Positions 6,901-7,410 of a stretch of DNA of 64,000 nucleotides are shown piece by piece. The stretch's first letter is position 1. The number at the start of each line of letters is the position of its first letter. The notes beneath the pieces are model-generated. The model was given only the letters and a program-made list of their open reading frames with translations. It did not search any database and was not told where the DNA came from. Where the stretch lies: the NCBI GenBank assembly GCA_026981935.1, contig JALSIC010000052.1, positions 2,571 to 66,570 on the forward strand, in the 5' to 3' direction. The stretch is from Gammaproteobacteria bacterium (GTDB lineage: Bacteria > Pseudomonadota > Gammaproteobacteria > SZUA-140). The position numbers were made by a program, and so were the translations under genes.

Positions 6901-7081
6901 GGAAAGTGTGAAAACTGCCATAGGGCGGGTTGCAAGCGTCAGAAAGCTTCTGCAAAACGAGTGGATTCACATGGCAGTTGTAGATCCAATATCTGGAGGT
7001 GTATATAGATATTGTGCTGGTGATTGGAAAGCGTATGACATTGGAGATCTGCATGCAGGTCGGGAGGCAGCTGCGATATGA
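3962..7081 (+). CDS. dabA: DabA-like inorganic carbon transporter subunit (DUF2309/UPF0753, PF10070), catalytic beta-CA-like partner of DabB
   Basis: 1039 aa. The N-terminal [20 protein letters not shown] is typical of DUF2309. MFCIDTRSE carries the Cys-x-Asp motif, and [24 protein letters not shown] carries a His followed by Cys 15 residues later; this matches the 4-residue metal-site pattern described for DabA. Starts and stops are coupled with the ORFs on both sides. Confidence 0.85.
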   Translation: [1039 protein letters not shown]

Positions 7082-7410
7082 ATGCAATAAAGTTTAATCA
7101 CCTGAAGAAGCTTGAGATCATCCTTGAGGGTGAATATAAGGAATTCGCGATTGACTTGCTGGACAGAGTAGGCGTAAAGGGTTACAGCATCATCAATAAT
7201 CTTTCCGGAAAAGGCAGTCATGGATTTCGCGACGGGCATATCATGTTCAATGAGGATGATCTTCTGATAATGATCATCGCTGCAGTGCCCGAAAAGCTCG
7301 TTGAGCCGATATTGCAAGGATTTTCACCGTTTTTCAAAGAGCATTCTGGTGTGGTTTTCGTTTCCGACATTCAGGTTACTCGGCTTGTCAAATTTGGCGG
7401 TGACGATTGA
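7078..7410 (+). CDS. PII-like (GlnB-fold) signalling protein, translationally coupled to dabA; possibly a carboxysome-associated CPII-like bicarbonate/adenylate sensor
   Basis: 110 aa. KKLEIILEGEYKEFAIDLLDRVGVKGYSIINNLSGKGSHG ... GVVFVSDIQVTRLVKF aligns by eye with the GlnB/PII pattern (KKIEAIIKPFKLDDV...GITGMTVTEVKGFGRQKG ... GKIFVFDVARVIRI). The ATG at 7078 overlaps the dabA stop (GATATGAATG). Confidence 0.65.
   Translation: MNAIKFNHLKKLEIILEGEYKEFAIDLLDRVGVKGYSIINNLSGKGSHGFRDGHIMFNEDDLLIMIIAAVPEKLVEPILQGFSPFFKEHSGVVFVSDIQVTRLVKFGGDD

Follow-up and report, generated by a model that had tools for sequence, protein, structure and literature searches.

Gene organization of the locus

The window examined here is a stretch of 64,000 nucleotides (nt) from a gammaproteobacterium of the SZUA-140 lineage (assembly GCA_026981935.1, contig JALSIC010000052.1). 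Its forward strand carries what appears to be a separate four-gene unit, located in a low-GC stretch, which matches the three-subunit DAB1-type CO2-hydrating pump and ends with a small gene for a PII-like protein of 110 amino acids. This last gene, cpII, is an ATG-start open reading frame (ORF) at 7078..7410 whose product matches Pfam P-II and the PDB entries 5d4n and 5d4l, making it an ortholog of CPII, a carboxysome-associated PII-like protein. Preceding it on the same strand is dabA (3962..7081; Pfam DabA PF10070, E = 2.7e-252), which codes for a carbonic-anhydrase-like pump subunit of the long DabA1 type with 1039 amino acids. A hydrophobic ORF of 252 amino acids (3207..3965) occupies the place of the third DAB1 subunit (hneap_0908), and dabB (1508..3205; Pfam Proton_antipo_M and Proton_antipo_N) encodes the NuoL/Mrp-antiporter-like membrane subunit. 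In fact, dabB probably begins at the ATG at 1523 and would then encode 560 amino acids, and a dabB of this length is called on contigs identical to the window.

The four genes are tightly packed. Only 1 nt separates the end of dabB from the 252-amino-acid ORF, whose stop codon in turn overlaps the start of dabA by 4 nt (ATGA). The same arrangement recurs at the next junction (sequence GCGATATGAATG), where the dabA TGA at 7079-7081 and the cpII ATG at 7078-7080 share an ATGA at 7078..7081 on the forward strand. Thus, both the ORF and its overlap with the dabA stop codon lie exactly where a first-pass annotation, made from the sequence alone, had placed them. Translation of cpII is driven by its own Shine-Dalgarno-like element, GGGAGG at 7062..7067 on the same strand, which lies within the 3' end of dabA and 10 nt before the cpII ATG. 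Because the start codon of cpII overlaps the stop codon of dabA, DabA and CPII are probably made together through translational coupling. Consensus scans for promoters and terminators around the cassette performed no better than scans of shuffled sequence.

The putative zinc ligands of DabA (C465, D467, H723, and C738) are invariant in 19 homologs, and with these residues intact the DAB pump of the window is predicted to be competent. The Pfam DabA match extends over residues 17-1002, yet it accounts for 744 of the 747 profile positions, and therefore this DabA1-type protein carries approximately 240 extra residues, where CPII or the small subunit might conceivably dock. The 252-amino-acid ORF, found by tblastn at the same position in 63 of the 71 genome loci introduced below, belongs to no Pfam or NCBIfam family, and profile comparisons with DabB and with DabA revealed no relation to either protein. 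A “distant homology to DabA1” proposed for the small subunit (bioRxiv 10.1101/476713) was not reproduced by profile comparison.

The 110-amino-acid protein is CPII

The small protein matches the Pfam P-II profile (PF00543) at 69.1 bits, well above the cut-off of 25 (E = 4.5e-19), with residues 10-103 covering positions 2-100 of the 102 in the profile. There are 879 homologs in a large protein database at E ≤ 1e-3. The PII-type resemblance that the first-pass annotation had noticed by eye is thus not a chance one. Among the 120 matches listed, identities range from 76% to 100%, and one protein is 100% identical to that of the window. Database sources name these homologs “nitrogen regulatory protein PII” or “P-II family nitrogen regulator,” which is probably a misleading name for the CPII subfamily. 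NCBIfam holds no model specific for CPII, and its sole match, the “PG0541 family transporter-associated protein,” falls below threshold at 24 bits (cut-off 45).

When all PDB sequences were searched, the best matches were 5d4n and 5d4l (E = 7e-49, residues 1-106), which represent CPII from Thiomonas intermedia and are 75% identical to the window protein over 106 residues without a gap. The next solved relative is SbtB, at E of approximately 1e-3 by single sequence. A family-profile search gave the same order, with CPII at E = 1e-52 and SbtB at 8e-4, and none of the canonical GlnB or GlnK chains in PDB passed E = 0.01 with this profile. Profile comparison therefore assigns the protein to the PII family rather than to an unrelated one, nearest to CPII and then to SbtB. 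CPII had been named at the outset merely as one family for comparison, and the protein turns out to be its ortholog.

A crystallized protein as close as 75% identity makes the fold assignment secure. The double beta-alpha-beta (ferredoxin-like) PII fold, predicted by homology with the T-loop connecting strands 2 and 3, is not in doubt, in agreement with the earlier alignment by eye to the PII core. By the same homology, the protein would assemble as a homotrimer and hold its ligands in the intersubunit clefts. An AlphaFold2 monomer model shows the element order E-H-E-loop-E-H-E-E (E, strand; H, helix), albeit at low confidence (predicted local distance difference test, pLDDT, 51; predicted template modeling score, pTM, 0.37). 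The 39-sequence alignment used as input was shallow, as the usable homologs were all at least 76% identical. A Foldseek search with this low-confidence model returned 5d4l as its sole significant match (E = 2.6e-5, TM score 0.40), under the title [quoted passage not shown] and so lends weak support.

The window protein and its T. intermedia counterpart are nearly equal in length (110 amino acids versus 108 and 116 residues in the deposited chains). They have in common the T-loop base LSGKGSHG and the C-terminal block HSGVVFV.DIQV, and 23 of the 26 substitutions between them fall in columns that are variable within the family. It is near certain that the ORF encodes CPII itself rather than a new PII-like protein. 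The protein is an ordinary member of an already known, characterized family in its usual genomic setting.

Several structures of T. intermedia K12 CPII are listed for one study (5d4l, 5d4n, 5d4o, 5d4p, 5drk, and 5ds7; Wheatley et al. 2016, J Mol Biol 428:4013). Secondary papers cite this protein as binding ADP and bicarbonate and report that bicarbonate alters its affinity for the nucleotides ADP and AMP. A possible hydrolysis of ADP to AMP by CPII is also mentioned in such citations. The binding of ADP or AMP and of bicarbonate is thus cited for the T. intermedia protein and would extend to the window protein by homology.

Sequence features and conservation

Canonical GlnB and GlnK proteins carry a modification site at Tyr51 in the T-loop and a B-loop nucleotide-binding motif, T-G-x-x-G-D-G-K-I-F. 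Neither feature is retained in the window protein, which is 24% identical to E. coli GlnB in a MAFFT alignment. In this alignment, LSGKGSHG--FRDGH stands opposite GFGRQKGHTELYRGAE of GlnB, which makes the loop 2 residues shorter and brings F50 opposite Tyr51. The first-pass annotation had set GKGSHG against the GRQKGH of the canonical T-loop, a pairing with which the alignment agrees to within one residue. In the B-loop, EHSGVVFV stands opposite IGDGKIFV, such that HSGV replaces GDGK. There is no cysteine among the 110 residues, and the C-terminus reads ...VTRLVKFGGDD.

An alignment of 70 distinct sequences was assembled from the window protein, T. intermedia CPII, and the proteins from 71 genome loci. 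It contains 31 invariant columns, and the window protein retains all 31. The invariant set includes S43-G44-K45-G46 and G49 at the T-loop base, as well as F57-N58, H89, G91-V95, D97-V100, R102, K105, and F106. At columns that are at least 90% conserved, the window protein shows just three deviations, all of them conservative (I25 for T, V31 for A, and S37 for T). Median identities to the window proteins over the 71 genome loci are 73% for CPII, 55% for DabB, 50% for DabA, and 36% for the 252-amino-acid ORF. CPII is shown by these values to be under strong purifying selection and to be by far the most constrained of the four cassette proteins.

Linkage of cpII to dabA across genomes

A genome scan that admitted one genome per species yielded the 71 loci. 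They come from Gammaproteobacteria (Thiothrix, Guyparkeria, Halothiobacillus, Thiogranum, and Acidiferrobacter), Betaproteobacteria (Thiomonas and Thiobacillus), Acidithiobacillia, Alphaproteobacteria (Brevirhabdus), Nocardioides, and a metagenome-assembled genome (MAG) of the Akkermansiaceae. The order dabB, small ORF, dabA, cpII holds throughout, save where a contig is truncated or, at one locus, where an insertion intervenes, and cpII lies directly 3' of dabA in 69 of 70. The dabA stop and cpII start codons form an ATGA in 53 of 70 loci and a TGATG, with a 1-nt overlap, in 6 of 70, and the two genes are no more than 20 nt apart in 67 of 70. A Shine-Dalgarno-like GGAG, GAGG, or AGGA precedes cpII in 68 of the 71 loci. 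The co-transcriptional position of cpII behind dabA is conserved.

Association with the carboxysome is less constant. A tblastn search with Pfam-verified marker proteins placed carboxysome or RuBisCO genes no farther than 8 kb from cpII in 39 of the 71 genome loci. A complete cbbLS-csoS2-csoSCA-csoS4-csoS1 operon is positioned just 3' of cpII in approximately 19 loci, with cbbL 0.2-1.2 kb downstream. Three Thiomonas loci (L006, L009, and L014) have the same gene order as the window cassette, followed by cbbL.

A few loci depart from the common arrangement or are flanked by other genes of interest. The sole genome locus with cpII apart from dabA (L042, 3995-8001) is in a Candidatus Igneacidithiobacillus taupoensis MAG, where genes for an Slp lipoprotein, an ArsC-like low-molecular-weight phosphatase, and the arsenite pump ArsB occupy approximately 4 kb of DNA between the two. 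This stretch may have been inserted, or it may stem from misassembly. On one metagenome contig (L075, 6869-10004), two genes (474 and 524 amino acids) are called in place of a single dabA upstream of an intact cpII, and an identical cpII occurs on another contig from the same sample. The split could mean that dabA is frameshifted or a pseudogene, or that the contig was wrongly assembled. SulP/STAS transporters, which constitute another candidate class of inorganic-carbon transporter, recur beside the cassette in other organisms together with LysR-type regulators and a ParA-like gene (L074-L077).

Search anchored on DabA

The linkage was also evaluated in reverse, by scanning metagenomes with a DabA alignment. 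The alignment of the 252-amino-acid ORF was too poorly conserved for such a scan, and DabA was used instead. This effort yielded 80 loci, all with a long DabA, of which 65 extend 400 nt or more beyond dabA. A CPII-like gene directly follows dabA in 56 of these 65 usable loci. In a close clade, whose DabA proteins are at least 46% identical, cpII is adjacent in every case (22 of 22). In a distant clade, with DabA proteins 31-45% identical, an adjacent CPII-like gene is present in 34 of 43 loci, and one more has such a gene approximately 2 kb away.

The distant CPII-like proteins (from loci in the range L100-L155, such as L134, 10283-10603, and L150, 10366-10692) are 45-53% identical to the window protein and score 113-142 bits on the family hidden Markov model. 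Two sampled distant loci match Pfam P-II at approximately 81-84 bits. In this clade the CPII-like gene usually follows dabA after a gap of 10-90 nt rather than with an overlap, and the 252-amino-acid ORF is mostly undetectable by tblastn. The source material consists of mixed environmental metagenomes, several of them apparently from soil or rhizosphere. Carboxysome or RuBisCO markers were found in none of the 43 distant loci, within the flanks of up to 7 kb that were examined. Since adjacency to dabA is kept where carboxysome genes are not nearby, the constant partner of CPII is the long-DabA pump and not the carboxysome.

Surroundings of the cassette

At the edge of the window, on the reverse strand and divergent from the dab cassette, lies the 5' part of the carboxysome shell gene csoS1D (1..474; first 158 codons), which is cut by the window boundary. 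The translation of this fragment equals the first 158 residues of a 204-amino-acid gene product on another contig (L072), for which precomputed Pfam matches to CsoS1D_N and BMC are available. The neighborhood typical of the CPII family, with DAB genes (NuoL-like/DUF2309) and an alpha-carboxysome, is represented in the window by dabA and this csoS1D fragment, and the presence of csoS1D beside the cassette means that the label “carboxysome-associated” fits here as well. The arrangement differs from that in Thiomonas, where the cassettes are located directly upstream of cbbL.

Downstream of cpII are a cytochrome c gene, a DUF302 gene, djlA, sspA/sspB, and the start of a cell-division (dcw) cluster. 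GC content is 36-50% over 501-7500, the value given for the DAB/CPII cassette, the csoS1D fragment beside it, and intergenic DNA, versus 59-67% over 8001-12000, where the flank holds housekeeping genes (djlA, sspAB, a glcD-like gene, and the dcw cluster). This contrast suggests that the carbon-uptake and carboxysome region arrived as an island by horizontal transfer. Neither a tRNA nor an Rfam element that might mark an island boundary was found in window positions 1-9000.

Comparison with other systems

DAB1 has been described as a three-subunit system that includes a small transmembrane protein. A close known counterpart of the window cassette is DAB1 of Halothiobacillus neapolitanus (hneap_0907-0909; Desmarais et al. 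2019), which has a long DabA of 1046 amino acids compared with 1039 in the window. Both systems have a DabB of approximately 560 amino acids (DabB1 has 559, and DabA1 1046, in bioRxiv 10.1101/476713), a small membrane protein encoded between DabB and DabA, and a P-II gene in the cluster. A Halothiobacillus locus from the genome scan (L040) shows the same gene order and the same ATGA overlap as the window. The H. neapolitanus cassette belongs to an operon of 11 genes, which lies downstream of that for the carboxysome and also includes acRAF and cbbOQ, whereas the window cassette is followed by housekeeping genes.

SbtB is also a small PII-like protein encoded beside an inorganic-carbon uptake system, and it too binds adenine nucleotides. 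However, its sequence relation to the window protein is marginal (E of approximately 1e-3), and cpII is flanked in the window by dabA and the cytochrome c gene, with no sbtA nearby. One report (PMC9974498) describes a C-terminal, redox-sensitive R-loop with a cysteine pair in SbtB, whereas the window protein is free of cysteine. Specific bicarbonate binding, which is reported for CPII, was not seen with SbtB. Membership in the SbtB family was rejected on the grounds that there is neither an adjacent sbtA gene nor a cysteine R-loop, although the working model of transporter gating presented below is borrowed from SbtB.

GlnK and AmtB provide a precedent in which a PII protein is co-operonic with a membrane transport complex. 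The window protein shares membership in the PII family by profile. It departs from GlnK in its 24% identity to E. coli GlnB and in the loss of the Tyr51 site and the GDGK B-loop, and its partner is a NuoL-like and carbonic-anhydrase-like CO2 pump rather than an Amt channel.

Proposed function of CPII

With moderate confidence, we favor a function for CPII as a ligand-controlled regulator of the DAB1 pump, whose target and direction of effect are suggested by analogy. A regulatory role for the DAB pump fits the strong linkage between cpII and dabA together with the reported binding of ADP and bicarbonate. The idea of such a link is not new, because a “nitrogen regulatory protein P-II (P-II)” gene was already drawn in the DAB1 operon in the legend of the H. 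neapolitanus gene-cluster figure (bioRxiv 10.1101/476713). By analogy with the action of SbtB on SbtA and of GlnK on AmtB, CPII trimers would bind ADP or AMP in the clefts between subunits, as other PII proteins do. Bicarbonate would shift the affinity of CPII for these nucleotides and thereby change the T-loop. The state of the T-loop would then determine whether CPII docks in a ligand-dependent manner on the cytoplasmic face of DAB1, most plausibly on DabA, such that the pump could be tuned or shut according to how much bicarbonate the cytosol contains and to the energy state of the cell.

A bolder version of this proposal would have CPII be primarily DAB-associated rather than carboxysome-associated. 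Long-DabA (three-subunit) DAB pumps, including those of the divergent clade without nearby carboxysome or RuBisCO genes, would then near-universally have it as a translationally coupled fourth component, and high cytosolic levels of bicarbonate and ADP would make it shut the pump by feedback. We advance this version tentatively, with slightly more doubt than belief. Several observations weigh against these proposals. No CPII-like gene was found in 8 of the 43 distant long-DabA loci with at least 400 nt after dabA (L100, L124, L143, L144, L148, L149, L152, and L155), and in two of them (L149 and L152) a dabB-like gene is located downstream of dabA instead. The AlphaFold monomer is of low confidence (pLDDT 51), and no physical or functional test of an interaction between CPII and DAB1 was found in the literature searched. 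Finally, the text describing a transposon screen in H. neapolitanus names DAB genes, acRAF, and regulators among the genes required for growth without high CO2, but not P-II (bioRxiv 10.1101/476713). Because P-II is absent from the named genes, CPII is not obviously essential for uptake. A nonessential CPII fits a modulator but weakens any claim that it is an obligatory subunit.

This last point bears directly on the possibility that CPII is a constitutive structural subunit, serving as a fourth component needed for DAB1 assembly or activity rather than as a dissociable regulator. Such a role would suit the tight packing of the cassette, with its 1-nt gap between dabB and the small ORF and its ATGA at the two following junctions, as well as the status of CPII as the most conserved cassette protein and a linkage to dabA that spans phyla. 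We nonetheless regard it as quite improbable. Besides the silence of the screen text on P-II, some long-DabA loci have no CPII-like gene, a 4-kb arsenic-resistance insert parts dabA from cpII in one MAG, and the ligand-dependent behavior published for CPII is that of a switch.

Somewhat less improbable, but still unlikely in our estimation, is that CPII senses bicarbonate and energy status on behalf of a target other than the pump, and that its position after dabA serves only for co-expression. PII proteins such as GlnB and GlnK have several targets, and candidates in this case would be a LysR/CbbR-type factor, the CbbQO RuBisCO activase, carboxysome assembly, or a SulP-type bicarbonate transporter. 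Carboxysome or RuBisCO genes are indeed near cpII in more than half of the genome loci (39 of 71), with cbbL just downstream in approximately 19, while LysR and SulP/STAS genes flank the cassette at several loci and csoS1D adjoins it in the window. However, all of these neighbors are variable, and dabA is the only constant one. Moreover, at the 35 distant loci where a CPII-like gene is retained, flanks of up to 7 kb show neither carboxysome nor RuBisCO genes, and the start/stop overlap with dabA in most loci indicates production matched to that of DabA.

What the public annotation implies is that CPII is a canonical nitrogen regulator of the GlnB/GlnK type, which would report 2-oxoglutarate and ATP status. 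The protein does pass the Pfam P-II threshold, and database sources give its homologs the PII name. This interpretation is nevertheless effectively refuted by the sequence, profile, and neighborhood evidence, and we assign it almost no weight. The protein is distant from E. coli GlnB, with a shorter T-loop, Phe in place of Tyr51, and HSGV in place of GDGK. The family profile reaches CPII at 1e-52 but no canonical PII structure at E = 0.01. Likewise, neither amtB nor glnA adjoins cpII in the window, where its neighbors are dabA and the cytochrome c gene.

Implications

The finding in the window itself re-identifies a characterized family, and what the comparative counts add is circumstantial support for a link to DAB1. 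If CPII is a DAB-associated feedback regulator, it would control a vectorial carbonic anhydrase in the way that GlnK controls AmtB, a role not described in the literature searched, and it would explain how DAB1 avoids futile cycling. Regulation against futile cycling is named as a question still to be answered in a 2026 paper on the structure of DAB2. Where the three-subunit DAB1 type is concerned, the obvious candidate for a regulator is CPII.

DAB pumps are candidate parts for CO2-concentrating mechanisms to be engineered into crops and E. coli. Because cpII is adjacent to dabA at nearly all loci, with a conserved start/stop overlap and a linkage that is kept without nearby carboxysome genes, the comparative data strengthen the case for studying and transplanting DAB1 together with cpII.

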